From Acidimicrobiia bacterium (GTDB taxonomy: Bacteria; Actinomycetota; Acidimicrobiia; Spongiisociales; Spongiisociaceae), in NCBI GenBank assembly GCA_963663955.1, contig OY760694.1, positions 2,503,587 to 2,567,586 on the forward strand: a stretch of 64,000 nt of DNA, written 5' to 3'. Shown one piece after another: positions 2 through 50,793 of the stretch (its first letter is position 1; each line of letters opens with the position of its first letter). Under the pieces are notes generated by a model. The model ran no database searches, was not told the DNA's origin, and worked only from the letters and a program-made list of their open reading frames with translations. The position numbers and the translations under genes are program-made.

Positions 2-853
2 TACTGGTACAAGTCTGACTTTGAGACCTTGGTACGAGCAAACTTCGCCGAGGCACACGATGCCTTGGCAGCCGTGAACTTCGCCGAAACCAAACGAATC
101 GCGACGGGCCAACTCGTGAGACGGCTCCGACTCAACGAGCAGAAGTACCAACCACTGGTTATCGACGCTCTCGTGGCCCTCGGCCGTTTCGATCCAGACT
201 TCCCTCACCTTGCTCGCCTCGACGACGGTCCGGCTCGTGTCGCCGAAGCCAAAGAAGCATACGACACCGTCCAGACTGTCATTAGACAGCACGCCGAAGC
301 AGTAGCGTCACGAGAGGCGGTAAGGCGCACTGCCGATAAGACAATCGCTGAGGCGTCCGCGCGGCGACAGCACGACAGCAGACTCAACCAACTCCATGAC
401 CAGTTCTTGAGGATGGCTCAATTATCCGACGAACCACACAAGCGGGGATTCGCGTTCGAGAGATTACTGAACGCAATGTTCGAACTTTGGGACCTCTATC
501 CGAAAGCGAGCTACAGGACCAAGCATGAACAGATCGACGGCGCCTTCACATTCCGAGCCAACGACTACCTACTCGAAGCGAAGTGGCACGCGGAGCCGCT
601 TGGTCTCGAGCACCTCGACAAGTTCAAGGCGAAAATAGATCGTAAGGCCCGGAATACCCTCGGTCTCTGCATCTCGATTTCAGGCTTCAAAGAGAGTGCC
701 GTCGATGCACACTCCTACAATCAAACACCGCTAATCCTGATGGACGGGATCGACCTCGTGCCCATACTCGAAGGCCACATCGAACTCATCGAGGTCCTGG
801 ATCGTAAACGACGAAATGCAGCTGAGACAGGCAAGCCCATGTATCGCGCATGA
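2..853 (+). CDS. Mrr-like restriction endonuclease-domain protein (PD-(D/E)xK), 5'-partial at window edge
   Basis: Reading frame is open from nt 2 (TTG at 29 is only the first possible start). C-terminal half GFAFERLLNAMFELWDLY...EQIDGAF...YLLEAKW...LILMDGIDL matches the Mrr catalytic core (D...EAK). N-terminal half is helical. Confidence 0.55.
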   Translation, partial: YWYKSDFETLVRANFAEAHDALAAVNFAETKRIATGQLVRRLRLNEQKYQPLVIDALVALGRFDPDFPHLARLDDGPARVAEAKEAYDTVQTVIRQHAEAVASREAVRRTADKTIAEASARRQHDSRLNQLHDQFLRMAQLSDEPHKRGFAFERLLNAMFELWDLYPKASYRTKHEQIDGAFTFRANDYLLEAKWHAEPLGLEHLDKFKAKIDRKARNTLGLCISISGFKESAVDAHSYNQTPLILMDGIDLVPILEGHIELIEVLDRKRRNAAETGKPMYRA

Positions 854-1019
854 ACCTCGACGATAGGCCGGCACACGTAAGCATGCCGGGTTCAAAGGGT
901 GGTCGCAACGCTCCCTTCAGTCTTCTCGTCTATCGGCCCGTGCTCCTGACCAGAGCGAAACGGTGCCACCTGAGCGTCCAAGTTGGGCAACAGCCGTCGG
1001 ACGCTGTCGTCTGTTCCCG

Positions 1020-1799
1020 TCATGCCCCTGCGTGGAAGCCAGCTAGGTACTTGTCGATCACCGCGACGGCTTCGTTCCGGAGGCGCGCCTTGGCCAGGTA
1101 GTCGCCAGGTTCCGCTTGGAATGACGCGTAAGCGTGGGGTCCGTCGTAGCCTGCTTCGGCAAAGCGCTCCGAGAGGAGGGCGATGGCTTCGGTGACTAGC
1201 GGGTGGCTGAAAACCGGACTGGCAGCGCTGGCGTACCCGGCTGCGGTTGGACCGCCGTCGTAGTTGAGGATGACAAAGACGAGGTCGTAGGCATCCTTGT
1301 TGTCGTGGCGGTCCTGGAACGTTAAAATCTTCAGAACCGTGTAAGGAAGCAGTCCAGCGACTCGAACCGTCACCTTGGAGCGGCCGCCATCGTCGAGTCG
1401 GTCTCTTTCGATCGGGCGTTCGATGTAGTCCCTCGTAACCAGTTGGGCGCCGCGGACATTGACCGCAGCCACCTTTGAACCGGTCGTTCCTCTCGGACGG
1501 TAGATAGTTCCTGGTTCAACTTGGTCGGTTTCGCAGAGAAACTCTACGTATACAACGGCACCATCCACAGTTCGGGACCATCGAAAACTCGGCTGGGCTT
1601 GTTTGAAGCCTGCGGTCTTGAGATTGTTGTGGAGGGTGCGGTACGTCTCTGGCGTATCGGCGTCAAGGGTGAGCCCGATGATCAAGTCGACGTCAGTAGT
1701 GCCGACATGTGCTCTGGCTCCAGCGGGGAGGCGGCCGACGAGGTAGCGGGGTGCGAGGCCCTCCGGCGAGATAGACGCGCTTGTTCCATGGACCGACAT
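1020..1799 (-). CDS. Nucleotidyltransferase-domain protein (AbiEii / GSU2403-like, putative toxin/effector)
   Basis: About 259 aa with an hG...D.D-type minimal NTase core (GTTDVDLIIGL). Lies immediately downstream of an HTH gene on the same strand, the arrangement typical of AbiE-type modules. Confidence 0.45.
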   Translation of the reverse strand: MSVHGTSASISPEGLAPRYLVGRLPAGARAHVGTTDVDLIIGLTLDADTPETYRTLHNNLKTAGFKQAQPSFRWSRTVDGAVVYVEFLCETDQVEPGTIYRPRGTTGSKVAAVNVRGAQLVTRDYIERPIERDRLDDGGRSKVTVRVAGLLPYTVLKILTFQDRHDNKDAYDLVFVILNYDGGPTAAGYASAASPVFSHPLVTEAIALLSERFAEAGYDGPHAYASFQAEPGDYLAKARLRNEAVAVIDKYLAGFHAGA

Positions 1800-1874
1800 C
1801 GCCGAGGAGCGTTAGTAACACTCTCTAGCAGCGGTCTGTTGCGAAGTTGTCGTAGGCGGTGTGATGGTCCCTCA

Positions 1875-2957
1875 TCAGAAGCCTATGACCTCGCGTCGTA
1901 GGTGATCCGCTTGCTCGACCCCACGGCGTCTGTCACGTCGGAGATCAGCGTAGAGCCTGAACTGATTGACCATCCAAAGATTGCCGTATTGCTTGCTAAA
2001 GGCGAGCGGTGCGTCGGAGCGAGCTTGCAGGAACGCGACGTTGTGACCCTGGGCGACTGGAGTTGCCGCCGTGTGGTCGAAGAGTTGCCTGGGGTCGGCT
2101 GCCTCGGCAACCCATACTTCTGCGACGGTGATCGTAGTTATGAGAGGCGCGATGATGCTCGCTGCGGCGGCGCCGGTCAGCGCATACTCGATACCGGCAC
2201 CATGAAGGCCCTCCCCGAGTTCGGTGATGAGTTGCCGAGGGGTTTGGGCCAGCAGGTAGCAACGGGTCCGGACTGGTCGGTCAACATTCTCCTCGGCCCA
2301 CAAATCCAGCAAGGCGGTGGGATCCGAGACGTGGCGCGTCCGGAGAGGACCGGCACCCTTCGTGTTGACAACGCCCTCAACCTCAAGGCGTGACAGCACA
2401 CGGTGAATCAGGCCACTCGAGACGCCAGTCTGCTCAGCCAAGTCCTTAATTCGCCAAGCCCTTCCAGGATCCAGCAAGAGGGCTTGAGCTATCAAACCGG
2501 CCTTGCCCGACAAGCGGCTCGGCGCGGGGGGACGAGTCGACCGGCCGGTCCCTTCGATGTGACAGAGCAGTCCCGGCAGCTCTAGGTGAACGTTGCCGAG
2601 CCCATCAATGAAGGCTATGCCGTGCTCCGTGAGTATCCGTCGGGCATCTGTCGTAGTCTCGGCGGCGATGAGTATCAGTGGGAACTCGAGACGGGGTTGA
2701 ACAAGGTTGACTAGCTGCCAAGCGACCACAGCATTGACACGGGTCTTGAACTCGATCGCGACCCATTCCTCAGTCCCTGCGAACATCACAACGGCGTCCG
2801 CTGCACTGCGGAGAGGTTCGGACTCTGCAATGACATCGAGACCAGGGATAGCTCTTATTATCCGTAGGGCTTCGGCTTCGAACCTACCGCCTATGTTTAT
2901 CATCGGTGCTATCTTCACAATGAGTGTAAAGATAGCACTCCTTGTGAAGAAGGCCAA
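1875..2957 (-). CDS. HTH DNA-binding protein, putative AbiEi-like regulator/antitoxin partner of the downstream NTase
   Basis: Central helix-turn-helix IKDLAEQTGVSSGLIHRVLSRLEVEGVV. About 76 nt separates it from the NTase gene on the same strand. N-terminal ~130 aa resembles a small nuclease-like alpha/beta domain. Start codon uncertain. Confidence 0.4.
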   Translation of the reverse strand: MAFFTRSAIFTLIVKIAPMINIGGRFEAEALRIIRAIPGLDVIAESEPLRSAADAVVMFAGTEEWVAIEFKTRVNAVVAWQLVNLVQPRLEFPLILIAAETTTDARRILTEHGIAFIDGLGNVHLELPGLLCHIEGTGRSTRPPAPSRLSGKAGLIAQALLLDPGRAWRIKDLAEQTGVSSGLIHRVLSRLEVEGVVNTKGAGPLRTRHVSDPTALLDLWAEENVDRPVRTRCYLLAQTPRQLITELGEGLHGAGIEYALTGAAAASIIAPLITTITVAEVWVAEAADPRQLFDHTAATPVAQGHNVAFLQARSDAPLAFSKQYGNLWMVNQFRLYADLRRDRRRGVEQADHLRREVIGF

Positions 2958-3384
2958 GCGTCTGGGACTGTAGGCTCAACTGCTTTTCTCAACAAGAAGG
3001 GAGACGCATGTACGGCACTTCCAATTTCGAACCTATTGAGTGGGCCTGCCTAGATTGTGGTAGTTACAAGGATGGTTACACTGTTTAGAGATACTGAGCT
3101 TAGAGGCTAAAACTATATTATGCTTCAAGTCGGGCTATCCTTGAAGGTGCCGCCCCGACAACGGAACTCTGACTCGGGACGGACGGGTGTGCAGGGCTCA
3201 GTGTGAACCTACCTGACTTGCGATTACCCCTCCCCTCAGTACTGCATTACGGATCGGATACTTGGCTTGGTAGCCTCCGAAGGCAGGCCACTAACGATGA
3301 CACCACGGAGGCGAGACCGGTCGGACAACCCGCACCAAACTCGACACCTTGGCGTAGCACAGAACCGGACGCAGCGGGTTCTGG

Positions 3385-6919: not shown

Positions 6920-9702
6920 AGGTATACGAGACCCACCGGTTCGACCCGTTTCACATGTACCTCGTAGAACTCGCGCACCCGGGCAGGCTCGTCCACCAGG
7001 TCCTCGTCGAACTGGGCGAGTCTCCTGTGCCAGTGCCGGATGTCGGCGTTGAGCTGCTTCGTTTCCTGGGCATTGAATCCGAAGGAAAGCTGCTTCCGGT
7101 CGCGTTCGTAGTGCTCGAGTTGGGCGACCACTTGGGCGCGGTGCCGCTCCAGGGTCTCTCGCAGCGACCGTTCCTCGCGCCGTCCGCGTTCGGCAAGCCG
7201 TTGCTCGGCTACTGCCGCGAACTCTTCCGCTCGAGGCTCCAACTGGGGACGGAGATCGGCGATGTCCTGGGGTGCGGAGGCGAGCAGTCTCCGGCGGATC
7301 ATCTCGTCCGGTTCTCGGGCGCGGGAGTCCAGGGAGGCGTCGAGGAGCCTCATGGTGCGTTCCTGCGCTTCCCGAGCGTAGGCGCGCAGCGGTCCGGAGC
7401 GCCGTTCCGGTTCGCTCCACCGGGCCGCCACCGGGATGATCTGCTCGTGCAGACGCTCGGCACCCCGGCCATACAGCGACAAGCGCCCGAGCAGGATGAC
7501 ACGCGGGATCGAATCCTTCGTCTGGGCGAGGCACGCTCGAGACAGGTCGTGATAGATGAACCCCTGTGAGCGGAACCGGGCCAGCAGCCGCTGGGCCACC
7601 CGCTGTTCCAGATGCAGGTGCACGGTTTGGTCGTCGAGCCGTCCTGTGTCCTCGAACACGACGGGTCGGAGGGGCGCGTCGCGTCGCCAGTCGGGGATCT
7701 TCTGGTCGATCCGGCGGGGCACGCGCAGTGAGTCGAGGGTGGATGTCCAGCTTGGATCGGTAGCTGCTCGCTGTTCCAGAGCAGGGAAGGTCCACACCCG
7801 GTGGCCGTTGTCACCGGCGCTCTCGGCGAGTTCCGAAGCTCCGAGCAGGCGGAGGGAGCAGTTGATCGCCTGGCGGAAGGGTTCCGCCGAGAACCTGACC
7901 CAATCCCGTGACTTCTCGAGGAGCTTCCGGCATCGCTCGATCTGGTCCTCGAGATCCTCGCGCCGTTCACGGGCCGCCTCTATCTCCTCGGCGGCGGCAA
8001 GGGTGCTTTCGCCCTGGGGAGACTCCGCCTTGATCTCGTATCTCAAGTGTTCCGCGTCGCTATGGCGGATGCCGTGGCGGATCAGGCGTTGCTCCACAGC
8101 GTCCTCGATCACCTTCGGTAGGCCTCCCAGTTCCTTCTTGATGGTCTCGGTCTTCCTGACCAGCACTTCGAGCACCCGGTCCTCGACTCGCTGCGGCAGC
8201 ACGAAGTAATGGCAGGTCACTTCGGTGGCCGGTTGCAGCTTGCGGTCGATGCGGCCGTTGCGCTGCTCGATACGGCCCGGATTCCACGGCAGGTCGAAAT
8301 GGAACATGTCCGAGCACCGCGCCTGCAAGTTGAGTCCCTCACGGGCGGCGTCGGTGGCTATCAGGATCCGCAGGGGCTCGTCGGCTGGGTCGGCATTGAA
8401 GCGGCGTTGTATCTCGCGGCGGCGCGCCGGGCTGGTCAACCCGTCGATCACATCTATCCGCTCATCGGCCTGGTCGGTGCCGAAGATGGCCTGCTCCAGA
8501 GTGGACTTCAGATACCGCTTGGTGCCCTGACGGTTCTCCGTGAAGATCAGGACGCGGCAGTCGGTCCAGGTGGGCGGCGGGCCGGTGATGGGCTTGCCCA
8601 TGGCTGGTAGCTCCGGGCACTGGTTGCGGCGTATCCACTCAATGAGCCATCGGGTCTTGGCGTCGGGTAGGTGCCTGGTCTCCTCGGCGATCTCCTGCAT
8701 GCGCTGGAGGAGACCCTGTTCACGTTCCCATGCCGCTGTCTCAGGGTCCTTGGACGGGAGGGCCGCCAAGTCGATCTCGCGGATGCGGGCCACCTCATCC
8801 GCCTCAACCTCTCAGGAGGCCAGCCAGCGCGCTCATCGTCGGCGTCGGGTGACTTCAGGAAAGCGAAGGCTTGATGGGAGTCGATCCGAGGTTGTGTCTC
8901 GCCGTCTTCGTGGGCTTCTTTCCAGTGGCGCAACACGTCCGGCGATGTACCAAGAGGGTGCGGACGAAAGCTTCGATCGACGACAGCAACTGCTGCCGCA
9001 AACGGATCACCATCAACCCGGCGGCATGTCGAACACGGCTGGATTCTGACCGGTAACGCTCCTCGCGCGCAATCCGATACTCGTCGAGGAGGCGGGATAA
9101 TTCCAGTTCGGGCGCCTCTTCGGGTAAGCCGTCGATCTCGATCCGCCTCACGTTGCGTTTCGGGAACCCACCTTGCACCGCCCGGATGTCCTCCTTCAGG
9201 CGTCGCACCATTACAGGTGCAAGATCGGTCTTGGGACGGGTCACCTTGACACCCCGGGTGAAGCGGTACGGGTCCAGCAGTTCCAACAGTGTGGAAAAGC
9301 TGTTCGAGTGGGCCGTTGTGGGGCGTCGCCGACAGGAACAGCCGATGCTCGAACCGGTGAGCGAGATCACGCACCGCTCGGGTGAACTTGGTCTCGATGC
9401 CGTACCGCCCGCCCGAGGAGGGCGCAGCGTGATGAGCTTCATCGAGGATCAGCAGGCTCCCCGTACGATGGTCACCCAGCCATTCACGCATCGGGTCCGT
9501 GTAGGACGGGTCGATCAGCAGGCGTTGCGAGATCAGGAACCTGCTGTGGGTACGCCAGGGATTCACACCGAAGCCGCGATCCCGGCGCATCCTCGACACG
9601 TAGCGCCTGTCGAGCACCTCGAACACGAGGCCGAACCGGTCCTCCATCTCCCCCTTCCATTGCTCCAGCATCGACGGAGGCGCGGCAACGACTGTGACCT
9701 TT
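6901..9702 (-). pseudogene. SNF2-family helicase (DrmD-like), C-terminal ~930 aa: remainder of ATPase core plus helicase-C and C-terminal region; internal frameshift
   Basis: DEAH box LILDEAHHAAPS and LFLSATPHNG in ORF 8547..9671. Frame switches to ORF 8855..9442 (STLLELLDPYRF), then continues in ORF 6901..8793 (helicase-C: RILIATDAAREGLNLQ..., FHFDLPWNPGRIEQRNGRIDR). The 5' boundary is the IS3 left inverted repeat at 9703. The stop overlaps the methyltransferase start by 19 nt. Confidence 0.7.
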
Positions 9703-9753
9703 GAACCCCCCCGGGTTTTCCGGAGACTCTAATTGGTTGGGAGATAATGGAGT

Positions 9754-12147
<2,394 letters not shown>

Positions 12148-12241
12148 CAATACCTGTCCATCCGCTACACAAACCGTTTAACGGAAACCGGGATCCGACC
12201 TTCGGTCGGATCCGTAGGCGACTCATACGACTGTGACGAGA

Positions 12242-14321: not shown

Positions 14322-16066
14322 TATCCTAGGAGCCTGCTGTTCTATGGGGGTTGTGGTGTAGCGGGTTGTGTGGGTGGGGGGTGTGTTTTGGTGGTTCGGG
14401 GCGGGGTTTTGGGGTTTGTTCGATGTTGGGGGGCCGGTTTATGCGGTGTGGGCTGGTTATGCGGGGTTGAGGGTCCAGCGGGTGTTTGTGTGGGTGAGTC
14501 CGAGGTTGGTGAGGCGTTGTAGGTTGACGGCTGCTGCTCTGGTGGTGAGCCATTGTTTGTTGCGGGTTAGTCCTCGGTAGGGGACGCGTCTGGCTTTGCC
14601 TCGGGTGAGCCAGGCGATGGTTCGTTCCACGAGCGGCCTCCGGGTGCGGTAGGTGGTTTGGTTTCCGGGTTCCTTGAAGCGTGTCTTGTTGGCTTCCCGC
14701 CGGTCGTGGTGTTCGTCGACTGTGACGGTGCGTCCTGCTTTGGCGGTGGTGCACCGGGCCCTCAGTGGGCAGCCGTTGCATCGTTTCGCAAAGCGGGCGG
14801 TTCCTCCGGGGCGTATGCTGGCGGTGTGTCCGGCGGGGCATGTCACGGTTCGTGCCCCGGTGTCGATAGTGAAATCGTCGCGGTGGTATCCGCCTTCGAT
14901 GCGGGTTTTGCGTACGATCGGTTTCACGATGGGGGTGTGACCTGCTTCTTCGAACGTTTTGAGCGCCGGACCCGACGCGTAAGCGGAGTCGGCGAGTATC
15001 ACGGTTTCGGGGGGTTCTTCGGCTATAAGATCGGCGATGCTGCCGGCGTCTGTGGTGTTAGCCGCGGTGAGATCCGTAGTGGTGACCAACCCGGTTTCGG
15101 GTTCCACCGCGACATGTGCTTTGTAACCGTCCCGCTTGGCGGACCGGGTTTTGTGACCGTGCCGGGCTTCGGGGTCCACCACCGAGATTGTCCGGTCCTT
15201 GGCGACACGGCGGGCTATCCGCCAACGGCCTTCCCGGTCGGGGTCCTGTTCCACGTCCTGGCCGCACACCACTCCCAACAAACCCAGAGCTTCGACCTGG
15301 TCCGAATCCAGTTTCATGTCCTTGACCGTTTCGATCAGCTTCAGGCCGTCTGTGACCAACCCGTTGATCAACTCGGAACGGGACTCCGGATCGGACCAAT
15401 CACAGGACGGTTTCGTCTTCGATTCGTAATCATGCGCTACCAACACCACATCGGCGGCTTCGGGTATCAGACGGCGGCAACGCCGTATCTGGGATGAGAT
15501 CATCGTTACCGTGTCCTGAGTAGCAACCGCGTCATCCAAAATCGTGGAATCCAGAGCCCGACGATCCTTACCCGCCAACACCCCCGACTCTGCAACCACT
15601 TCCCGCACCGCGTCGAAGATACGCTCAGGCTTCTTACTCGCCCGCAGCCTCGCCCGCCACCGGGTCAACACCGTCGGATGAAACCCCTCATCCACCAACG
15701 ACAAACCCGCCGCTGCTTTCCAGGCGATGTCACAACGCAGCCGCTCAACCGCTTCCCGATCCGAAACAGCCTCCAAAGCCTGCAACACCAACACAGTCGC
15801 AATCACAGAACCCGGAACCGACGGGCGACCCCGCCCACTACCAAACAAATCCGCGAACATCCCGTCGGGAAACAAACGGAGGCGATGCTCCGCTAGAAAC
15901 CGGTACACCGAACCCACCGGCACCAACCCCCCACACAACCCCATCGTATCCAACAACTCACGATCAAAACGTTCAACACCCTGCATAACCCCCACAATAA
16001 CACCACCAAACACAAAACGCGAATACCCCCGGGCCCGACCACCCGAATAAAACAGCAGTCTCCTAG
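14322..16066 (-). mobile_element. IS1182-family (IS4/IS5 superfamily) insertion sequence upstream of the helicase gene
   Basis: Terminal inverted repeats CCTAGGAGCCTGCTGTT (14323-14339) and AACAGCAGTCTCCTAG (16049-16064), 1 mismatch. Encloses a 518-aa DDE transposase. Confidence 0.75.
14457..16013 (-). CDS. IS1182-family DDE transposase (intact)
   Basis: ...ILADSAYASGPALKTFEEAGHTPIVKP...RPLVERTIAWLTRGKARRVPYRGLTRNKQWLTTRAAAVNLQRL, the C-terminal signature of IS1182/IS5-like transposases. Confidence 0.8.
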   Translation of the reverse strand: MFGGVIVGVMQGVERFDRELLDTMGLCGGLVPVGSVYRFLAEHRLRLFPDGMFADLFGSGRGRPSVPGSVIATVLVLQALEAVSDREAVERLRCDIAWKAAAGLSLVDEGFHPTVLTRWRARLRASKKPERIFDAVREVVAESGVLAGKDRRALDSTILDDAVATQDTVTMISSQIRRCRRLIPEAADVVLVAHDYESKTKPSCDWSDPESRSELINGLVTDGLKLIETVKDMKLDSDQVEALGLLGVVCGQDVEQDPDREGRWRIARRVAKDRTISVVDPEARHGHKTRSAKRDGYKAHVAVEPETGLVTTTDLTAANTTDAGSIADLIAEEPPETVILADSAYASGPALKTFEEAGHTPIVKPIVRKTRIEGGYHRDDFTIDTGARTVTCPAGHTASIRPGGTARFAKRCNGCPLRARCTTAKAGRTVTVDEHHDRREANKTRFKEPGNQTTYRTRRPLVERTIAWLTRGKARRVPYRGLTRNKQWLTTRAAAVNLQRLTNLGLTHTNTRWTLNPA

Positions 16067-20131: not shown

Positions 20132-20419
20132 TCAAGTGGCATTTACGGCGGTGACCCCGGGAACCCGATCCGTGAGTATGCGCTCGATTCCGGCGGTGAG
20201 GGTCATCATCGACATGGGGCACCCGCTGCACGCGCCGACCAGGTCGAGGTTCACAGTCCCATCGTCATCCACCCCGAGCAGGACCAGATCGCCACCGTCA
20301 TGCTGGAGGGCCGGCCGGATATATTCAAGCGTGGAATCGAGCAGGTCGCGGTCGACCTGGCCGGGCTCGCCAGCAGGCCGCGGCGGCTTGATGGTTACAA
20401 CAGTCTCCGATACGGCCAT
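20132..20419 (-). CDS. NifU-like (Nfu-type) Fe-S cluster assembly domain protein
   Basis: 95 aa containing ...GGDLVLLGVDDDGTVNLDLVGACSGCPMS... (CxxC NifU C-terminal domain). Confidence 0.65.
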   Translation of the reverse strand: MAVSETVVTIKPPRPAGEPGQVDRDLLDSTLEYIRPALQHDGGDLVLLGVDDDGTVNLDLVGACSGCPMSMMTLTAGIERILTDRVPGVTAVNAT

Positions 20420-20487
20420 GGCCGGTTGACTCCTGTCGGTAGGCGAGTTGATAACGATTTTAGGGGGTTCGAAGACTTGTGGGGGCT

Positions 20488-20693
20488 AACCCTGATTATT
20501 CAGGTTTCTCACACACCGGGGCATGTAACGCCAGTTCAACCCGAGTATTGGGAGAAACCCGCCGTTCACCCGGCAGGTGAATCTCTATACCGGGCCGGGA
20601 TGGGAAACGCCTATAGCTGTATTCCCTGGTCAGGGCGCGAATATGGTCTACTCCGCTCATCCTCCAAACCCCTATCCGTGAATAATCGGGGCT
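20488..20693. repeat. ~205-bp intergenic element with ~16-bp terminal inverted repeats (MITE-like or structured sRNA), copy A
   Basis: GCCCTGATTATTCAGG at the start and CCGTGAATAATCGGGGC at the end (reverse-complement match). About 85% identical to 32192-32398. Contains an internal palindrome GTTCACCCGGCAGGTGAA. Confidence 0.6.
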
Positions 20694-21480
20694 AAGCGTC
20701 GAACGCGGTAGCCGAAAGTTGGAGGGAGAGATACCCCGTATCGAGATCCTCCTTGCGTACCCGAAGGTCCAAGTACACGACCCCCAAAACTACCCCGATG
20801 AAAGGCTGGGCGACCAACCACGCCATCTCGGACGCCACCCAAAACCCGAAATCACCAAGTAGAGGTACCGTGACCATTCCAAGGAGCAATCCCCCGGCGA
20901 TCTCCACAAACAACACGAGGGCGGTGGAGATCAGGAGAACACCGAATACACCCCAACGCCTACCCGAGGTCAGCCTCCAGGAACGGGACATAGCGGGGAG
21001 AGGACCGCCGCCCTCGACCATCAGGACCGGTAGGCAGGCGCACAAGGCCACCAGCATGTAGAAACCAGGCACAACGAACAGGGCGGATCCCGCTGTCACC
21101 GCCGCCCAGAACAAGATCGATACCACGGCGATGGCGACCATCCTGCTTATCGCCGCGGCCGCGTGCTGACGCCAGGGCGACTCCACCCCCACGTAGGCCT
21201 CCACCACCGTTCTGGATATCGCTGACAGAATGATGGCAATGATCAACAAGCGGATGATCAGCCAGGGCGCCATCGCCGACAGGACCTGCTGGAGTTCTTC
21301 AACGGTGGCGGCAGCAGTTAGAGAGGGTGGCGATTCCATGAGGATGGGGTAGAGAACCGCGTACGGGAGGATGAGAACCCCGGCGACGGCAATCAAGGTC
21401 CCCCACCTCTTGCGGTAGACCTTGAACGAGGTTCCGAGAATCTCCCCGATGGTCATCGGACGGAGTTGCAGCATGTCCAT
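20692..21480 (-). CDS. Integral membrane protein (hypothetical, ~6 TM)
   Basis: Hydrophobic segments throughout. No catalytic motif recognised. Confidence 0.45.
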   Translation of the reverse strand: MDMLQLRPMTIGEILGTSFKVYRKRWGTLIAVAGVLILPYAVLYPILMESPPSLTAAATVEELQQVLSAMAPWLIIRLLIIAIILSAISRTVVEAYVGVESPWRQHAAAAISRMVAIAVVSILFWAAVTAGSALFVVPGFYMLVALCACLPVLMVEGGGPLPAMSRSWRLTSGRRWGVFGVLLISTALVLFVEIAGGLLLGMVTVPLLGDFGFWVASEMAWLVAQPFIGVVLGVVYLDLRVRKEDLDTGYLSLQLSATAFDA

Positions 21481-24573: not shown

Positions 24574-26949
24574 ATGCGCTTGCAGAGGTTGAAACCCTTG
24601 CCTACCTGCGAGCCTTCCCGCCCGCGACCCCGGATTCGTCCGGCTGCTCTGTTAACCACCTTGGCGATGTTGCTAACCACCTTCTTCTCCACCCAGGCCG
24701 GCGCCCAATCAGGTAGCAACGACAACCCGAACCAGGATCCGGGATCGGCGCGGGTTACCTGCGAGGAAACCGTCGTCGTGTTCCAACTACTGTGTATCGC
24801 TTACCAGGTCATCAGCGACAACCATATCGATCCGGTCGACGACGCCGACTTGGCCAGGGAAGCGGTGAACCGGATACGGGAGGCGAAGCTGGCCGAGCGA
24901 ACGGAGGGAACACCTACTCCGTGCCCGCTACCGGCGCCCGAATTCGAGGAGGTGTGCCGGGAGATCGATAGGGTCGAAGACACCGCGATGGCCGTCGAGA
25001 TGGCCATGAGAGGAATGGTACGGGCGCTGGACGAGAACTCGTACTTCCTTACCGCGGCCCAGTACGACCGATTCCTGGAAGCCATCGAGAATCGGGGAAT
25101 CACCGGCCTCGGATTGGCCTTTGCTCTGACCGATGACGGCGAAGCCTGCTTCGAGGTTTCGACCTCCTGCGTGCCGGTAATCAGCGAGGTCTACGAGGGA
25201 ACGCCGGCTCATGAAGCCGGGCTGGCGGTCGGTGATGTGCTCGAGAAACTCGGAAACGTCTTCCCCGCCGACCTGAAGTGTTCTGCGGTACCCGGTCTCG
25301 ATAGGTTCCCGGCGGGTACCGGTGTCGCCATCACGGTGAGGCGGGGAACCGAAACCGTTTCAACGACGATCACCGCCGCCGACCTTGCTATACCCGCGGC
25401 GCGGGGGCGCCTCGTGGACGATGAAATCGGGTTGCTGCGTCTCGATTCGTTCGGTAGTTCGGCCGGCCAGGACGTGCGGGAGGTGCTTGAAAGGCTAACC
25501 AATACCGGGGCTAGCGCCCTGGTGTTCGACCTCAGGGGGAATCCGGGTGGTTACGTCGATTCGGCTGTCGGAGTGGCGGGGCTTTTCCTCCCGAACTTGA
25601 CAACGGTCGTGCAATTGGTGAGCAGGGAGCAGGCCGAGTCCATCGGCGCCCGAGGCAAGGAACTCTATCCGGATCCGATACTCCTGCCCATGGTGGTGGT
25701 CACCGACAACCGCAGTGCGTCGGCGTCGGAGTTGGTCACCGGCGCCCTTCACGACCACGGAAGGGTCACCACGGTGGGTGAACGGACCTACGGCAAGAAC
25801 ACGGGTCAGTCCTCCTACCGGCTGCATCTGGAAGGTAGGACGGTTGCCGTGATCCATTTGACCACGATCCGGTGGTTGACTCCCGACTCCCGTAGCGCCG
25901 ATGGCGGATTCGGGCCGGACGTGGCTATGGAACTGCCTTCCTGCCTGCCGCCTGCCGAAGTGGCCAGGAGAGCTGTCTCCGCTATCCGTCCCCGGGTTAC
26001 CGGCGTGGCGATCACCAGCACCCCCCAACATAAGGCAGGCTACGCGGCGGGCGAATCGGTGAAGCTGGCCGTGTCCTTTACATCCCCGGTGGTGGTCGTG
26101 GCTAGTGGAGCAACGCCACAACTCGAGCTCCGGATCGGAGAAAGCAACCGATTTGCTCTCTACCGAGCGGGAAGCGGAACTTCCCGGCTGGTCTTCGAGT
26201 ACCTGGTAACCGAGAACGACAACGACGAGGACGGAATCACCGTTGAGCCCGACTCCCTATTCACCGGAAGAGCGAATATACAGCTCCCGGGCGGACTGGA
26301 CGCCAACCTCTCTCATGCGGCCGCCGCTCCGGACCCCACGCAGCTGGTTACCGGATCGAGCCGGGATAGGCCCGACGACCACCCCGCCTTCGTCGATATC
26401 GCCGCTTCGCCACATCGCACCGGCATCGAGATCATCACCACGGCTGCCATCGCTGAAGGCTGCGGGAATGCGGATAGCAGACGGTTCTGTCCGGACGATC
26501 CGGTGACCCGTGGTCAGATGGCCACCTACCTCGCCAGGCTCCTAGACCTACCCGCCGCCGACCTCGACCACTTCACCGACGACAACGGAACCACCCACGA
26601 AAACAACATAAACAGCCTCGCCGCAACCGGCATCACCCAAGGCTGCGACAACCACCGATACTGCCCCGACCAACCCATCACCCGAGGGCAAACGGCTACC
26701 TACCTCGCCAGGGTCCTAGACCTACCCGCCGCCGACCTCGACCACTTCACCGACGACAACGGAACCACCCACGAAAACAACATAAACAGCCTCGCCGCAA
26801 CCGGCATCACCCAAGGCTGCGACAACCACCGATACTGCCCCGACCAACCCATCACCCGAGGGCAAATGGCTACCTACCTCGCCAGGGTCCTGGACCGTCT
26901 TGCGGCGGCGAACCCGCCGGTTGTGGAGGAAGGCTTCAAAGGCCCTTAG
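24574..26949 (+). CDS. S41-family C-terminal processing peptidase with PDZ domain and three C-terminal SLH (S-layer homology) repeats
   Basis: Signal peptide. S41 motifs LVFDLRGNPGGYVDS and DNRSASASELV. Three repeats FTDDNGTTHENNINSLAATGITQGCDNHRYCPDQPITRGQMATYLARVL (SLH consensus F.D...I..L...GI..G......P...ITR...A..L). Confidence 0.8.
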   Translation: MRLQRLKPLPTCEPSRPRPRIRPAALLTTLAMLLTTFFSTQAGAQSGSNDNPNQDPGSARVTCEETVVVFQLLCIAYQVISDNHIDPVDDADLAREAVNRIREAKLAERTEGTPTPCPLPAPEFEEVCREIDRVEDTAMAVEMAMRGMVRALDENSYFLTAAQYDRFLEAIENRGITGLGLAFALTDDGEACFEVSTSCVPVISEVYEGTPAHEAGLAVGDVLEKLGNVFPADLKCSAVPGLDRFPAGTGVAITVRRGTETVSTTITAADLAIPAARGRLVDDEIGLLRLDSFGSSAGQDVREVLERLTNTGASALVFDLRGNPGGYVDSAVGVAGLFLPNLTTVVQLVSREQAESIGARGKELYPDPILLPMVVVTDNRSASASELVTGALHDHGRVTTVGERTYGKNTGQSSYRLHLEGRTVAVIHLTTIRWLTPDSRSADGGFGPDVAMELPSCLPPAEVARRAVSAIRPRVTGVAITSTPQHKAGYAAGESVKLAVSFTSPVVVVASGATPQLELRIGESNRFALYRAGSGTSRLVFEYLVTENDNDEDGITVEPDSLFTGRANIQLPGGLDANLSHAAAAPDPTQLVTGSSRDRPDDHPAFVDIAASPHRTGIEIITTAAIAEGCGNADSRRFCPDDPVTRGQMATYLARLLDLPAADLDHFTDDNGTTHENNINSLAATGITQGCDNHRYCPDQPITRGQTATYLARVLDLPAADLDHFTDDNGTTHENNINSLAATGITQGCDNHRYCPDQPITRGQMATYLARVLDRLAAANPPVVEEGFKGP
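26527..26880. repeat. Near-identical 174-bp tandem duplication (2 copies) encoding SLH repeats 2 and 3 of the S41 peptidase
   Basis: TACCTCGCCAGGGTCCT... recurs at 26527, 26701 and 26875. Only a few mismatches over 174 bp (e.g. ACGGCT/ATGGCT and CTAGA/CTGGA). Confidence 0.8.
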
Positions 26950-32191: not shown

Positions 32192-32448
32192 TAGCCCTGA
32201 TTATTCAGGTTTCCCACACACCGGGGCATGTAACGCGAGTCCAACCCGAGTATTGGGAGAAAACCCAACGTTCACCTGCCGGGTGAACCTCCACAGCGGA
32301 TCGGGATGGGAGATGCCGATAGCTGTATTGCCTGGTCAGGGCGTGAAACTGGTCTACTCCACTCATCCTCTAAACCCCCATCCATGAATAATCGGGGCTA
32401 AAGCCTGATCATTCGGGTTTCCCACCCACCGAGGCATGTATTCGGGAT
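32192..32448. repeat. ~205-bp element with terminal inverted repeats (copy B) plus an adjacent partial third copy
   Basis: GCCCTGATTATTCAGG ... CCATGAATAATCGGGGC (32195-32397), then CCTGATCATTCGGGTTTCCCACCCACCGAGGCATGTA (32403-32448) repeats the first ~45 nt. Lies between convergent gene ends. Confidence 0.6.
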
Positions 32449-39468: not shown

Positions 39469-39873
39469 GTGGTGATTGACCACTCGATGACACCCCTCCT
39501 TGCACCGGGCGACCATCTGATCACCCGTCTGCTAAGACCCGGCTTCCTTCCCCTCCGTGGGAACCTGGTGATATACCGCGACGATGACCGCTACCTGATC
39601 AAACGGGTAATCGGTCTCCCGGGGGAAAGCGTCACGATAGACGGTGGGATACTCTTGATCGACGGCCAGACCTTCTCCGAACCGTGGTGGTCCGCGGCCA
39701 CCCGCCCCGACGGGATCTGGACGATTCCGGCAGACTCCTGGTTCGTGTTGGGCGACAATCGCCCCCACTCCCACTCGGATAGCCGCTCAACCGGCCCGGT
39801 TCGAACCGGCGACCTCCACTCTGTCGCCGTCGCCCGTTACCGTCCGATCAAACGAATCCGTCGCCTCCGGTAA
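39469..39873 (+). CDS. sodX: Ni-SOD maturation peptidase (signal peptidase I / S26 family, SodX)
   Basis: S26 fold motifs RVIGLPGESV, WFVLGDNRPHSHSDSR. Adjacent and divergent to sodN, as is typical. Confidence 0.75.
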   Translation: MVIDHSMTPLLAPGDHLITRLLRPGFLPLRGNLVIYRDDDRYLIKRVIGLPGESVTIDGGILLIDGQTFSEPWWSAATRPDGIWTIPADSWFVLGDNRPHSHSDSRSTGPVRTGDLHSVAVARYRPIKRIRRLR

Positions 39874-39916
39874 GCCCCTGACCCCTCACTCAAACGATCA
39901 TCCACTCTCCCGTAGC

Positions 39917-40420
39917 TTGGGGGAAGCGGCAACCGGCTCCGCCTCACCGTTCGCACCTATCACACACGATCGCTATATTGTTACCGTGACAATTGGCAGA
40001 CAGACTTTCCCCGACTCTGACGACGACGTATTTGCCTTCTCCGACGACGAATGGGATTTGGATAATCCGTTCGGGGATTACGATGGGGATGCGTACCCCC
40101 CAGCCGCGGGGAACCACCTTGGGTCCCTCAGTGGCGGCTTCGTCCCGATACTGCTAGTACTGATCTCGTTCGTCGCCCTGATCGGCGCGGCGGCATTCAC
40201 CGTTCGCGACGTACAGGCCGAACAGGCGGTCTCCGGAAGCGGGTTCGTATCGGCGTTAGGGGCATACATTTTCGCCGCCGCCGCCGACACCGGCAACCGG
40301 CGCAGCAAGGAGATGAGAGAGATTCCCGGCCGCATGGGGTTTGCGGTTTTCTTACGGTGGATCGCGCCCTTAGTCGCCCTCGCGGTGGCCATCCTCGCCG
40401 CCCACGGAGCGGCCCTTTGA
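39917..40420 (+). CDS. Hypothetical membrane protein
   Basis: Two hydrophobic segments (GFVPILLVLISFVALIGAAAF and FAVFLRWIAPLVALAVAIL). Acidic N-terminal region. Start uncertain. Confidence 0.3.
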   Translation: MGEAATGSASPFAPITHDRYIVTVTIGRQTFPDSDDDVFAFSDDEWDLDNPFGDYDGDAYPPAAGNHLGSLSGGFVPILLVLISFVALIGAAAFTVRDVQAEQAVSGSGFVSALGAYIFAAAADTGNRRSKEMREIPGRMGFAVFLRWIAPLVALAVAILAAHGAAL

Positions 40421-40438
40421 GGATCTTCTTCGATAGCA

Positions 40439-40448
40439 GGGGGGGGGG
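40439..40448. repeat. Homopolymeric G10 tract in the intergenic region upstream of the VWA operon
   Basis: GGGGGGGGGG at 40439-40448, 42 nt upstream of the start at 40490. Confidence 0.9.
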
Positions 40449-40489
40449 AAGGCCCTTGGAACGAGTCGGCGCCAACAGGTACCGCGGCC

Positions 40490-43400
40490 ATGAGATTCCG
40501 GCGGCATGCTCTCATCCGGCGGAACAGGGTGGGTTTCCGTAAGCGGGTTTGCTCGCATCGAATACTGACCACGGTCACGCTGTGGCTCGTAATCGCGGCG
40601 GCTACGGTCGCGACGCCCTTGGGGGCCTCGGCCCAGACGTCATCAAGCTCAGACCCTGATATCCCGCAAAGCCCCGACTGCCATCCCAGCCAGACCATAA
40701 GGATCCTATTCCTGCTTGACACCTCGGGGAGCTTGCAATGGAACGATCCGGCGGGTAACCGGATCGAAGGAACCATTCGGGCCGTGTCCGACCTGGTAAC
40801 CCGGGCGATCAACGACGGCCCGGAGCAGCGCCGCAGATACGGCGGATGGTCATTGCAGGTGGCGGTCGACACATTCGCCAACGACTACTACCGATCCGGA
40901 GACTGGCGCCCGCTGGTCGGTACCGATGAGGCTCTGCTCACCGGTACCGACCAAATCAGGGATCTAGCCCGGCAGCTTGAGGACACGATACGAGCGGCGG
41001 AACCGTCCGGCTCCCGGACCGACTACCGCAGAGCCTTGGCCGGCGCCGTCGAACGGTTTCGCGAAGGCGGCGGCGGCTCCTGCAACCTGCTGTTCTGGTT
41101 CACCGACGGGGAACACGACACTCAGGGCCGCGCCAGGCTCAACAGTACCGAGCGCCGCCAGATAGACGACATGTGTCGATCGGACGGGGTGGTAGCGGAC
41201 CTCAGACAGTCCGGAATATGGACCAGTGTGATCGAGTTGACCGAGAACCGCGCCCCAACCGCCGTGCTGCCTCGGCTGGTTGGGACCGGTCAGGAGTGCG
41301 ACGGCCTCAACGGGAGCGTCGTGGGACGTGTCATCCCGGTAGCGTCCGCCTCGCAGCTGGTGGACGACATCGAAAGGATCCTGTACGAGGTCTGGCCTCG
41401 CACACCGATCGAATACCATCCTTGCTCCCCCACGCCGGAGCGTCGGTTCGTTCTCGACGAAGACCTTGAAGAGGTCAGGGTGTTCGTCGACCTTACCAAG
41501 GTCGACGAACCCGACGCTGTGGTGCTAAGCCTTCAACCTCCCGGCGGCCGACCGTTTCCGATCTCGTTTCCCGACACTTGGAGGAGAATCTCGAACACAG
41601 GATTGCTCGGCTGGAAGCCCACCAAGTGGCATCGGGAGATCAGGGCGCATCAGCTTGGCCGGCAGCTGTACGGAACGGTCTGGGGCGCCGATCAGGAGTG
41701 GCGTCTGTTCTGTTCCGGCCCCGGCTACGAACGGGCCGAGATCGCCATAGAGAAACTCGAGATAGAGAAAGCGAGGGTGGTGGAGCTGAACCGGACCGCC
41801 GACAATCTGGTGGGGCAGGTGCAACCACCACCGAAAGAGGGGGAAACGGTCCGCATCTCGGCCCGAATCGGCGGTGTTGGTCCCGGTGCCGGACGTAGCC
41901 TTGATCTCCCCGATGAGGACCTTCGGGTCGAGCGCAACGGCAGGTTCACGATCCCCACCGTCAAGGACCGGGTTGAGGAGGCGCTCGGGGAGACCGGAGA
42001 ATGCCAGGCCGAACTTGAGGTCTCGGTCACCAAGTGGGTGACCTATGGCGAAGAGCGCAGCTTCTGGGACATCCCCGGATCGGAGGCCGTACTCGCCGTG
42101 GACGTCTGTCGGGGCCCTCTGCCGGAAGTCTCGATCGCCCTGATCGATGGACAGCCTTCAGGCCCTCTCGAGGTCACCGCCCGCGGCGGCTATCTCGATT
42201 CCCTCCTTACGATCGCGGGAATCGGCACCGATCCTCCGGTGGAACTCGGTCCATTGGTGTGGCGTTGTGAAGTCCCCGCCAATGTAGACGGTTTCCGCTG
42301 CGACAACCTTGCGGTGGACGTGTCCGACCAGCCCGACATCGGAACGGAAGTGGACTTGGAAGTGACCGTCGAAGCAAGCCCCCAAGGCTTGGACCGGCCA
42401 GAGACCCGGATCCTTCCGGTGGCGGGGCTGCTGGTCAAGGGCAAACTCCCCCACCCCGATCGGGTGATGGTCGGCGGCGCTGGAACCGGTGTGGTCCAGG
42501 TAGGCGCCGACGGTGGCCTGCATGACTCCGAGATGGAGATAACCGCCGTCCGACCTGTGGAAGTAAGCGTGTCGGATGGTCCCTGGCGTTGCTACGTGCC
42601 CGCCAATGAGGTCGAGTATTCCTGCAGTCCAGATGTCGTCCTGACCGCGCCGGGAGCTACGCGGTCGATCAACACCCCCCTGTCGCTCACCATCAGGGCT
42701 CGATCCACGGTCGACGGTTCCGCCGAGTGGGTCAGGGACTTCCCGATCAGCAGCCTCGACATACCGGGTGATCTGCCCCGAGAGTTGACCGTAACTGCTC
42801 TGCCCCGTGACCCGGACGAGCCGATCACGCTGAAGGTAGCGGTCGAACCCGGGGCCCAGGCCGCGGTGGTGTCATCGGAATCGGTCGAACCGGTAGAGGC
42901 CGCCCATCCCGAGAAAGATCCGGTCCGGATCGTCGTATCATCCTGGGAAGGCTGGCGATGTGACATCGAAAGAACCCTTCCGGGTGTCGCCACGAACGTC
43001 ACAGAGTGCGACCAACCGCTCCGCATCGAGTGGGAGGGTTCCCACGACTCGGAGATCGGTCTCAACCTCACCTTCGGGATCCGGGGATCGGCGGACGGGG
43101 AAGTATCTCAGTCGGTCACCGCCACCTCCGGACCGTTCGAGATACGAGTCTGGGAACTCTCGGAGTTCATCGCCGCCCTGATCCGCTACCTGGCCGTGCT
43201 CGTCGTAGCTGTGTTAGCGGTTCGCGTGTTAACGGCTTGGTGGCGTCGGCGATGGGCCCCGGCGTCCTCGGCGCAATACTTCACCCTCCGCGGCGACAGC
43301 GGTACGTCGATCGAGGAGTCGACCGGAAGGTCTCAGATCGAACCGTCAGAGTATGAGATGGCACCCGGCCTCGACTCCAGAGCGTCCTCGGCGAACCTGG

Positions 43401-43825
43401 GCGAGATTCAGCTCCGCATGTTGTGGTGGCCGTTGCTGCTCGGGGGGCGCCGACGGATCGCCGCGTTCTATCCGGACGGCGCCTGCACATCCGGTGCCGG
43501 AAGTAGCAAGCAGCGGCTGGGCGAAGGCAGGTACGGCGTGGTCGGATCCTCTCTACGGGACGGTTGGGCCTTGGGACGGGCATCGGATGACGGATGGACA
43601 TTGGTGGTATGGGATCTCCCTTCCGACCAGGATGAGGCCCAAGCCAGGCTCGACGAGGCGATCAACGAGGCCGCCGCCCGGTGGGACTCCGTTTCTCCCC
43701 GGAAGACACCATCGCCAAGTTCGGCCCAGGATTCCCCCGAAGTTCCCCAACGTGAACCGCCCGGGGAAGAAGGTTCTTCTGACTGGGATTCCGATCTCGA
43801 CGACGATCCCTTCGTAACCAAATGA
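40490..43825 (+). CDS. Exported VWA-domain protein, 1111 aa, single C-terminal-proximal TM anchor and cytoplasmic tail
   Basis: N-terminal signal/TM segment. VWA MIDAS motif IRILFLLDTSGSL ... LLFWFTDGEHD. Three ~115-aa repeats each with W-R-C...C. TM helix FIAALIRYLAVLVVAVLAVRVL. ~200-aa tail ending in an acidic patch. Confidence 0.7.
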   Translation: MRFRRHALIRRNRVGFRKRVCSHRILTTVTLWLVIAAATVATPLGASAQTSSSSDPDIPQSPDCHPSQTIRILFLLDTSGSLQWNDPAGNRIEGTIRAVSDLVTRAINDGPEQRRRYGGWSLQVAVDTFANDYYRSGDWRPLVGTDEALLTGTDQIRDLARQLEDTIRAAEPSGSRTDYRRALAGAVERFREGGGGSCNLLFWFTDGEHDTQGRARLNSTERRQIDDMCRSDGVVADLRQSGIWTSVIELTENRAPTAVLPRLVGTGQECDGLNGSVVGRVIPVASASQLVDDIERILYEVWPRTPIEYHPCSPTPERRFVLDEDLEEVRVFVDLTKVDEPDAVVLSLQPPGGRPFPISFPDTWRRISNTGLLGWKPTKWHREIRAHQLGRQLYGTVWGADQEWRLFCSGPGYERAEIAIEKLEIEKARVVELNRTADNLVGQVQPPPKEGETVRISARIGGVGPGAGRSLDLPDEDLRVERNGRFTIPTVKDRVEEALGETGECQAELEVSVTKWVTYGEERSFWDIPGSEAVLAVDVCRGPLPEVSIALIDGQPSGPLEVTARGGYLDSLLTIAGIGTDPPVELGPLVWRCEVPANVDGFRCDNLAVDVSDQPDIGTEVDLEVTVEASPQGLDRPETRILPVAGLLVKGKLPHPDRVMVGGAGTGVVQVGADGGLHDSEMEITAVRPVEVSVSDGPWRCYVPANEVEYSCSPDVVLTAPGATRSINTPLSLTIRARSTVDGSAEWVRDFPISSLDIPGDLPRELTVTALPRDPDEPITLKVAVEPGAQAAVVSSESVEPVEAAHPEKDPVRIVVSSWEGWRCDIERTLPGVATNVTECDQPLRIEWEGSHDSEIGLNLTFGIRGSADGEVSQSVTATSGPFEIRVWELSEFIAALIRYLAVLVVAVLAVRVLTAWWRRRWAPASSAQYFTLRGDSGTSIEESTGRSQIEPSEYEMAPGLDSRASSANLGEIQLRMLWWPLLLGGRRRIAAFYPDGACTSGAGSSKQRLGEGRYGVVGSSLRDGWALGRASDDGWTLVVWDLPSDQDEAQARLDEAINEAAARWDSVSPRKTPSPSSAQDSPEVPQREPPGEEGSSDWDSDLDDDPFVTK

Positions 43826-43854
43826 GATGAAACCATCGACTAGGAGATGAACAA

Positions 43855-44961
43855 ATGCTGAGACCCGTCATCATGATCGGTTGCGGAGGATCCGGTTCCA
43901 AAGCGGTTCGCTATGTCCGCGACGCGGTGGAGCGCAAGCTGCGTCACGCCGGGGTCAAGGGCGGCATTCCCGATGCGTGGTCATTCATAGGGCTCGACAC
44001 CCTCACCGTGCAGGAGGACGCGACGGAAATACCGACCCTTCCGGCGACGGACTTCCTGTCGGTGTCGCTCGGCCTCAACAAGTACAGCGATGTTCACGAC
44101 GGACTGATGGTCGAACGCCCGGTTACTTCCTCCACCTATCCGAGCCTGGTGGGTTGGCGCCCCAACCCTGGTGACGTGAACGTGCCGCTGCTCGACGGGG
44201 CCGGAAAGTTCCGGGCAGTGGGGCGGTTGGTCGGGCTGCTGGCGTCGACGAACGAACTTCAAAAACGGATAGGCCGCGCCTTCATGGCCGCCAAGTCGGG
44301 GGGGCCGGAACTGGGTCGTATCTCCGAAGCCTTGGGTGTCCCCTCAAGCTTGGGCTCGGCGACGCCCTCCCCGCTCGTGGTGATCTGTGCTTCGGTGGCG
44401 GGGGGCACCGGCGCCGGGATCGCCCTTGATGTGGTGGATATGGTCCGTAGAGTCGACGATCTCGGGGGATTCCCGGTCCTGGTGCTGTTCACCGCCGACA
44501 TCTTCGACTTCGGCGTCGACGACGCCATGGCGGCCAATTCGCTCGGCCTGGTTTCGGAGACCATGGCCTCCTATTGGGGCAAGCAAGGCGACAACTTCTT
44601 TCCGTCGTTGGTTCCCGAGCCGGGGTCCGGCCCGCACGCCCTGTTTTTCGTCGGCCGACACAGCCTCAAAGGTGGCGATCTGGGCGACACCGTGTCGGTG
44701 TATCGGGCGGTGGGCGAAGCGATGTCCACCTGGGTCACCGAGCCGAGGGTGCAGGAACAGATCCACAACTTCATCACCGTCAACTGGGCGAGTCAGGCCA
44801 AGAATCGGATGGGGGGATATCCCTTCGGAGTGGAATATCAACCGGGTGCGGTGTCCTCATTCGGCGCGGCCACCGTCTCGATGGGGCGTGACCGCTTCGA
44901 GCGCTGGGCCACCGATCTGCTGTCCCCACGAGACCCTCCGACGACTCGCCGGCGGGCATAA
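43855..44961 (+). CDS. Divergent FtsZ/tubulin-superfamily GTPase domain protein (FtsZl-1-like); probably the N-terminal part of a larger protein
   Basis: T1 loop VIMIGCGGSGSKAV (cf. FtsZ IKVIGVGGGGGNAV). T4 signature LVVICASVAGGTGAGIALDVVDMV (cf. FtsZ ITAGMGGGTGTGAAPVIAE). The frame ends 3' of a C4 run at 44924-44927, where the next ORF continues. Confidence 0.65.
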   Translation: MLRPVIMIGCGGSGSKAVRYVRDAVERKLRHAGVKGGIPDAWSFIGLDTLTVQEDATEIPTLPATDFLSVSLGLNKYSDVHDGLMVERPVTSSTYPSLVGWRPNPGDVNVPLLDGAGKFRAVGRLVGLLASTNELQKRIGRAFMAAKSGGPELGRISEALGVPSSLGSATPSPLVVICASVAGGTGAGIALDVVDMVRRVDDLGGFPVLVLFTADIFDFGVDDAMAANSLGLVSETMASYWGKQGDNFFPSLVPEPGSGPHALFFVGRHSLKGGDLGDTVSVYRAVGEAMSTWVTEPRVQEQIHNFITVNWASQAKNRMGGYPFGVEYQPGAVSSFGAATVSMGRDRFERWATDLLSPRDPPTTRRRA

Positions 44962-50608: not shown

Positions 50609-50793
50609 GTCGAGAACGCATCTCCTGAATCCCGCCTGTCCGACCCATCGGTGCAAACCGAACTGCACACGGGTTCTCGGATGAATGTCAACGGATCCGT
50701 CGGCTTCTGTAGCCGCTAATCGGGCGATTCGGCGGCCTTACACCTATTAGGGTCGTTGCATTCGGACCATGTTTTCTGAGACACTTCACCTAT

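Follow-up and report, generated by a model that had tools for sequence, protein, structure and literature searches.

A 204-bp intergenic repeat of Acidimicrobiia, very probably a TA-inserting miniature inverted-repeat transposable element with a YTAR preference

Introduction

RUP of Streptococcus pneumoniae, Nezha of cyanobacteria and Correia of Neisseria are non-coding repeats of roughly 100–200 bp that carry terminal inverted repeats (TIRs) and a TA duplication, occur in many intergenic copies and fold into one long hairpin. We take RUP and Nezha to be bacterial MITEs (miniature inverted-repeat transposable elements) derived from the IS630/Tc1-mariner group, and Correia to be TA-flanked; IS630/Tc1-type elements also duplicate TA. 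REPs are far shorter and are mobilised by RAYT transposases, and IS200/IS605-type elements make no target duplication and have asymmetric ends. For ERIC, we know of no demonstrated TA duplication with empty sites of the kind reported below. The class Acidimicrobiia is known mostly from metagenome-assembled genomes, and our literature search found no MITE family described for it. In the IS5 family, the 842-bp element IS711 duplicates the TA of a YTAR target (PMC2266754), and the target-site duplication of IS5 itself is YTAR (PMC5009759).

Here we describe a repeat from an Acidimicrobiia genome that is comparable in behavior to RUP, Correia, Nezha and the IS5-derived MITEs. Like the IS5-family elements with a YTAR target (IS711/IS6501 of Brucella, IS5 and MITEs derived from them), it sits in a Y-TA-R target with the central TA duplicated, and its ends begin just inside the TA; however, its apparent duplication varies, with 2, 3 or 4 identical bases, whereas that of IS711 is TA and that of IS5 is the 4-bp YTAR. 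It has no sequence similarity to RUP, Nezha or Correia and no Rfam, plasmid or phage match, and it differs further from the IS630-derived MITEs in that we saw no IS630-type transposase and that its host belongs to a high-GC actinobacterial class for which the literature search gave no MITE family. It resembles the enterobacterial ERIC/IRU and REP/BIME sequences in being intergenic, imperfectly palindromic and multi-copy, but for this element, in contrast to those, insertion polymorphism and target-site duplication were seen directly.

Results

The window, by which we mean the whole 64-kb stretch of DNA analyzed, contains two full-length copies and one fragment of the element, established by direct reading, a repeat finder and MAFFT alignment. 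Copy A (20489–20692, plus strand, 204 bp; nhmmer E=2e-69) and copy B (32194–32398, plus strand, 205 bp; E=7e-67) agree in 178 of 205 columns of a global alignment (87%), so that the two copies of about 85% identity in the first-pass annotation stand with refined limits. The partial third repeat noted there is also real and now runs from 32402 to 32441 on the plus strand (E=2e-7): this copy C is a truncated older copy of about 40 nt that retains the 5′ end only, repeating the first 40 nt of the element, belongs to a subfamily with GCCTGATCATTCGGG, and lies head-to-tail with copy B, the two abutting through a common CTAA. A 25-nt seed from the element matched three times in the window and in none of 100 shuffles, and a profile search of the window with the family model found no match beyond A, B and C.

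When copies were aligned together with their flanks, similarity stopped abruptly on both sides, giving the ends Y-TA-R|CCCTGATTATTCAGG ... CCATGAATAATCGGGG|Y-TA-R. The inverted repeats proposed earlier are present in imperfect form, the left one reading RCCCTGATTATTCAGG and the right one CC[G/A]TGAATAATCGGGGY, with one T/C difference and one extra base between them; the details given for them did not hold, in that the right end is not C[CG]TG... and copy A starts with A rather than G. In copy A, the left TIR (ACCCTGATTATTCAGG) occupies 20489–20504 and the right TIR (CCGTGAATAATCGGGGC) 20676–20692, both written on the plus strand. The sequence RCCCTGATTATTCAGG pairs with CCATGAATAATCGGGGY, and 12 pairs of this terminal stem are kept in 46–50 of 50 copies.

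The central palindrome reported for both copies is likewise a genuine hairpin, but its loop has 5 nt, not 6: copy A reads GTTCACC-CGGCA-GGTGAAT (20564–20582, plus strand) and copy B GTTCACC-TGCCG-GGTGAAC (32270–32288, plus strand). The suggestion that the loop had been inverted between the two did not survive comparison across about 50 copies with the pattern GTTCACC-NNNNN-GGTGAAY, whose loops are CGACA (the majority), CGGCA (as in A), CGATA, CGCCG, CGGCG, TGGCG and TGCCG (as in B). Since such intermediates occur in other copies of the family, the A and B loops are linked stepwise by single substitutions, DNA inversion of the loop was rejected, and the reverse-complement relation of the two is coincidental. 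A second hairpin, CCCGA-GTA-TYGGG, is found in some subfamilies and is destroyed (TCAAG) in the youngest and most abundant one, and is therefore dispensable for spread.

The earlier view that the element lacks coding capacity was confirmed. Plus-strand frame 0 is open for 68 codons in the consensus and in copy A, but 1-nt indels close it in copy B and in the 205–206-nt subfamilies, and we rejected a protein-coding reading on account of these frame-breaking differences between subfamilies. Database ORFs that cross the element are 33–95 aa long and carry no Pfam domain, and exact-sequence look-ups of a 179-aa ORF, the window's 54-aa ORF, P0001 and P0047 returned nothing on record.

Copies outside the window were sought with the 22-base seed GGTTTCNCACNCACCGNGGCATGTA, scanned over one genome per species (185,579 species); its 38 matches, on both strands, all fell in one Acidimicrobiia genome of 4.08 Mb (OZ246890.1; 4,082,865 bp). 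A BLAST census with six variants over 35 fetched 8-kb loci (280 kb of OZ246890.1) plus the window then gave 56 places, 50 of them full length and on both strands, with lengths of 201–206 bp across the family (MITEs range from about 50 to 600 bp). Identity to the consensus has a median of 92% and identity to the nearest neighbor a median of 97%, with a range of 68–100%, so that the family comprises old copies plus recently amplified subfamilies. The flanks of aligned loci are unrelated to one another, and an all-against-all BLAST of the loci and the window revealed, the element excepted, no common repeat of more than 350 bp. The BLASTN survey of copy number and target-site duplications suggested in the first-pass annotation thus delivered both, with about 50 dispersed full copies and the TA duplication described below.

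Distribution was also traced through a spurious 59-aa minus-strand ORF predicted on the element, which was searched against 5.8 billion protein clusters. The search yielded 46 small proteins, none with a Pfam domain, and every one of them lies on a contig of 4,140,741 bp, 4,082,865 bp (OZ246890.1) or 4,016,103 bp (the genome of locus L036), or on one of five ENA contigs of 0.2–0.57 Mb; the 4,016,103-bp and 4,140,741-bp contigs come from the ENA analyses ERZ25069711 and ERZ25084387. Because all 46 fall on these contigs, the family is confined to a narrow lineage of Acidimicrobiia, each genome of which carries dozens of MITE copies. A JGI metagenome scan with a 20-nt end of the element gave one chance match on an unrelated low-GC contig that had been sampled twice, and the same end had no match in viral contigs or plasmids. 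Two Logan short-read contigs from the strain of the window itself, L038 and L039, break off within the element, the behavior to be expected of a repeat.

Two arrangements are worth recording. In L020 (7290–7700), a strongly diverged copy with ends GCCGTGATTCTTCATG...CATGAAAAATCGGGGC sits at a TA within a second diverged copy, which shows that the family is old and that its elements insert into one another. In L014 of OZ246890.1 (3095–4648), a polyprenyl-diphosphate-synthase-like gene lies between two MITE copies of the same orientation in a composite-transposon-like arrangement, and the terminal repeats of the upstream copy are decayed.

Both full copies in the window are intergenic, as had been proposed. 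Copy A lies between a 262-aa membrane-protein gene (20692–21480, minus strand, TAG stop) and the start of a NifU gene (20132–20419, minus strand, PF01106), and copy B between convergent genes that end at 32081 and 32503. Across the family, with genes predicted by a simple GC3-based gene call, no copy was found inside a predicted gene, whereas half of all YTAR sites are genic (P about 4e-15), and orientation relative to the nearest gene end was the same in 16 cases and opposite in 17 (hand tally). For 8 of the 50 copies, a flanking TA belongs to the TAA or TAG stop codon of a neighboring gene, against 8.3% expected from available non-genic YTAR sites (p=0.05); this enrichment is marginal and seems to follow largely from which targets are available in a genome of 62% GC.

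The target site itself is well defined. Copy A is bounded by TA at 20487–20488 and 20693–20694, the latter forming, together with base 20692, the minus-strand TAG stop of the 262-aa gene, and copy B by TA at 32192–32193 and 32399–32400. Among the oriented full copies, 44 of 48 have TA on both sides, in flanking tetramers that read CTAG, CTAA, TTAG or TTAA. The terminal bases of the element are complementary in 38 of these 44 (permutation p=1e-4), in keeping with an element that has R...Y ends and duplicates TA, and only 18 of the 44 have all four flanking bases identical on both sides, so a simple 4-bp duplication does not fit. In the other six the terminal bases do not complement one another (A..C or G..T), and these are precisely the copies with four identical flanking bases. 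Furthermore, at least three contiguous flanking bases are common to both sides in all 44, and the junctions are asymmetric, with CTAG|CTAA outnumbering its mirror class TTAG|CTAG by 16:3. The junction pattern is therefore not fully explained by a simple 2-bp duplication.

Three comparisons of filled and empty sites between close strains place these junctions in context and show insertions to be polymorphic at 93–99% strain identity. The clearest is at the TTAG at 50747–50750 of the window, a site that is empty in the window and in strain locus L044 (98.8% identical to the window) and filled with a MITE copy in strain locus L042 (97.7% identical). The empty site reads ...ACCTAT-TAG-GGTCG... and the filled one ...ACCTAT-TA[G CCCCGATT...ATCAGGG C]TA-G-GGTCG..., a TA target-site duplication. 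Copy B and fragment C are absent from the matching spacer in L042, where the spacer is too diverged for the duplication of B to be read.

The third comparison concerns copy A, which is missing from L036, a locus of a 4.02-Mb genome whose NifU protein is identical and whose nucleotide identity is 93–95%. In L036 the last codons of the 262-aa gene are ...GCA TAG, the same stop codon as in the window but with no element, and 64 nt further on comes the start codon of NifU. In the window, copy A sits in the TA of that TAG, and the terminal base of the element rebuilds the stop codon. The flank of copy A reads GGGGG-CTAA (window 20481–20486) against GGG-CTA at the empty sites of L036 and L037, and the two extra C/G bases beside the duplication possibly originated by slippage or as a footprint.

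At the spot of copy A (window about 20480–20690), the strain represented by L037 carries a different insertion of 2.3 kb (585–3000), which has TAGCCCAYA on both sides and codes for an AAA_15/AAA_21 ATPase of 499 aa and a second protein of 173 aa. The spot looks like an insertion hot spot, and the insert is possibly a small defense cassette.

Two further features of the window were noted. A 10.8-kb segment (39864–50689) that is absent from the close strains L044 and L042 is bounded by a repeat of about 12 nt. Its products are a 1111-aa protein that matches VWA_2 weakly, a tubulin-like protein of 368 aa (Tubulin_2) and three large proteins for which Pfam has no match; it looks like a strain-variable island and is possibly a conflict or defense system. 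At 26482–26896, three tandem 174-bp repeats, 78–91% identical, lie inside a 791-aa ORF (24574–26949) and probably encode a repeated protein domain.

The search for a partner transposase covered about 411 kb from these genomes, in which we found no autonomous element with matching ends; nor did any pair of MITE ends among the fetched loci enclose a transposase. The 1.56-kb ‘pair’ in L014 was considered as an autonomous element and set aside, as it consists of two separate copies with the polyprenyl synthase gene between them, and the orphan ends of L006, L016 and L035 run on into ordinary genes. Screening the 411 kb for TA-flanked inverted repeats 600–2600 bp apart recovered only MITE pairs and one insertion sequence, located in the window at 14330–16062 on the minus strand. 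This IS1182/IS5-like element has CTAG on both sides, 15-nt ends (GAGCCTGCTGTTCTA) and a 518-aa transposase with DUF772, DDE_Tnp_1 and DDE_Tnp_1_6 domains (14457–16013). Each of the three complete MITE-bearing genomes has relatives that are 89–91% identical, one genome having 19 member sequences, and the copy fetched from OZ246890.1 is likewise CTAG-flanked, so a transposase of the same target habit coexists with the MITE. The ends of the IS1182/IS5-like element (GGAGYCTGCTGTT...) follow GGAG(C/A/T)CTGCTGTT, as against RCCCTGATTATTC in the MITE, and the likeness between the two is weak and not significant (best anchored alignment p 0.007–0.05 before correction for 20 comparisons).

An IS30-like element and an IS3-like remnant in the window were rejected as relatives of the MITE since their ends are unrelated. 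They lie together at 9700–12200, where the IS3-family remnant (ALIL frameshift pseudoknot at 10034–10150 and truncated rve ORF at 10076–10828) is interrupted by the IS30-like element (10700–12141), which has 21-nt inverted repeats at 10700–10720 and 12121–12141 and a 466-aa HTH_38+rve transposase.

Discussion

The repeat is very probably a non-coding 204-bp MITE that inserts at TA with a YTAR preference. The MITE reading, which the first-pass annotation had offered alongside that of a structured small RNA, draws support from the small size of the element, its TIRs, the TA duplication seen against empty sites, the dispersed copies on both strands and the lack of a conserved reading frame. The element is of an ordinary, well-known kind, though the family seems to be undescribed: neither Rfam nor the phage and plasmid collections nor the literature searched gave a counterpart.

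As a MITE, the element would be a non-autonomous DNA transposon that carries no gene and depends on a DDE-type transposase acting in trans, which would recognize its 15–16-bp terminal inverted repeats, by either cut-and-paste or copy-paste chemistry. Integration takes place at a TA in Y-TA-R context and duplicates the TA, and the element proper starts with R and ends with Y, so insertion into a TAA or TAG stop codon rebuilds the stop, as at copy A. By such insertions the family has multiplied to dozens of copies per genome, which survive only between genes.

The transposase is most likely of the IS5 superfamily, of IS711/IS427 or IS5 type, with an IS630/Tc1-like enzyme as a second possibility. 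We favor the IS5 superfamily on account of the target duplication, which is the TA of YTAR for IS711 and YTAR itself for IS5. No IS5-family element with the terminal repeats of the MITE was found in the approximately 411 kb, and the IS1182/IS5-like element of the window has other ends; it is a candidate for the kind of transposase that mobilizes the MITE, and we do not call it the partner.

The junctions may reflect a flexible 2–4-bp stagger, or a 4-bp YTAR duplication whose inner base is ‘corrected’ to complementarity in an extruded hairpin. With its R...Y ends, the element would perhaps be adapted to harmless insertion into stop codons in a TA-poor genome, and some copies might serve as hairpins at mRNA 3′ ends. 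We regard this account as speculative and quite improbable.

Some copies of the MITE could have been co-opted by the host as mRNA-stabilizing hairpins, terminators, RNase III targets or a supply of promoters, a fate reported for Correia, ERIC and RUP elements. Copies very often lie 0–150 nt from gene ends, copy A lies directly upstream of NifU in a spacer of 272 nt whose two flanking genes are co-oriented, and the element as a whole can close into a terminal stem of about 15 bp, all of which would suit such a role. However, the copies show no orientation preference, no promoter consensus and no consistent terminator consensus, and close strains that lack them keep the same genes intact, which makes co-option unlikely.

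A second possibility is that the repeat represents a structured small RNA gene or a cis-regulatory RNA family, the terminal ‘inverted repeats’ being the closing helix of the RNA. Single copies do fold better than shuffles (z about −2.5), a T.G wobble occurs in the terminal stem on the plus strand, the central hairpin is retained even in copies that are 68–80% identical, and the minus strand of copy B has a terminator-like match. Yet the folding z-scores are equally good on both strands (−2.5 plus, −2.2 minus), the picture expected from DNA inverted repeats, and what RNAalifold kept from 50 copies was confined to the terminal stem, the central hairpin and a few weak pairs, with covariation terms of −0.54 kcal/mol (plus strand) and −0.60 kcal/mol (minus strand). 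Double changes were seen in only 2 of 34 pairs, one such change in each, and no Rfam family matched the window at gathering score or the interval 20400–20800 at E<=10. The Rfam search and fold-covariance analysis that the first-pass annotation had named as checks therefore speak against its small-RNA reading, with no Rfam family and a covariation term of about −0.5 kcal/mol on either strand. In addition, orientation relative to genes is random, consensus scans gave no promoter-like site and just one terminator-like site, a weak one on B's minus strand, the CCCGA/TYGGG hairpin is gone from the most recently amplified subfamily, and the TA duplications and empty sites show insertion at the DNA level. 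An RNA gene is thus very unlikely, and the internal hairpin and long terminal stem belong to the transposon at the DNA level and do not count as evidence of an RNA gene.

A REP/BIME-type palindrome that owes its spread to a RAYT (Y1 HUH) transposase, or a palindrome-associated element of IS200/IS605 type, would also be intergenic, repeated and hairpin-forming; such an origin is extremely improbable, given that the element is 204 bp long against the 20–40 nt of REPs (it had rightly been judged too long for a REP, and the TA duplication adds to this), is bounded at both ends by true terminal inverted repeats and a symmetric TA duplication, and has no RAYT or TnpA gene in view near its copies, and because the target-site duplication in the L042 filled/empty pair contradicts it. 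That the repeat is a remnant of a duplicated gene end or of a local segmental duplication, an outcome the first-pass annotation had allowed for if only these copies existed and their flanks were homologous, has a negligible probability, for although the window itself shows only two and a half copies, another genome holds about 50 with unrelated flanks, and exact boundaries and empty sites are seen.

Recognizing the element as a MITE has several practical consequences. It breaks short-read assemblies and yields spurious ‘hypothetical protein’ calls of 33–95 aa, and its strain-level insertion polymorphisms are usable for typing. By itself the MITE opens no new biological question; it adds to the Acidimicrobiia a well-delimited and apparently still mobile MITE family, whose clean TA-in-YTAR rule and many copies would be a convenient handle for finding the transposase responsible in whole-genome scans.
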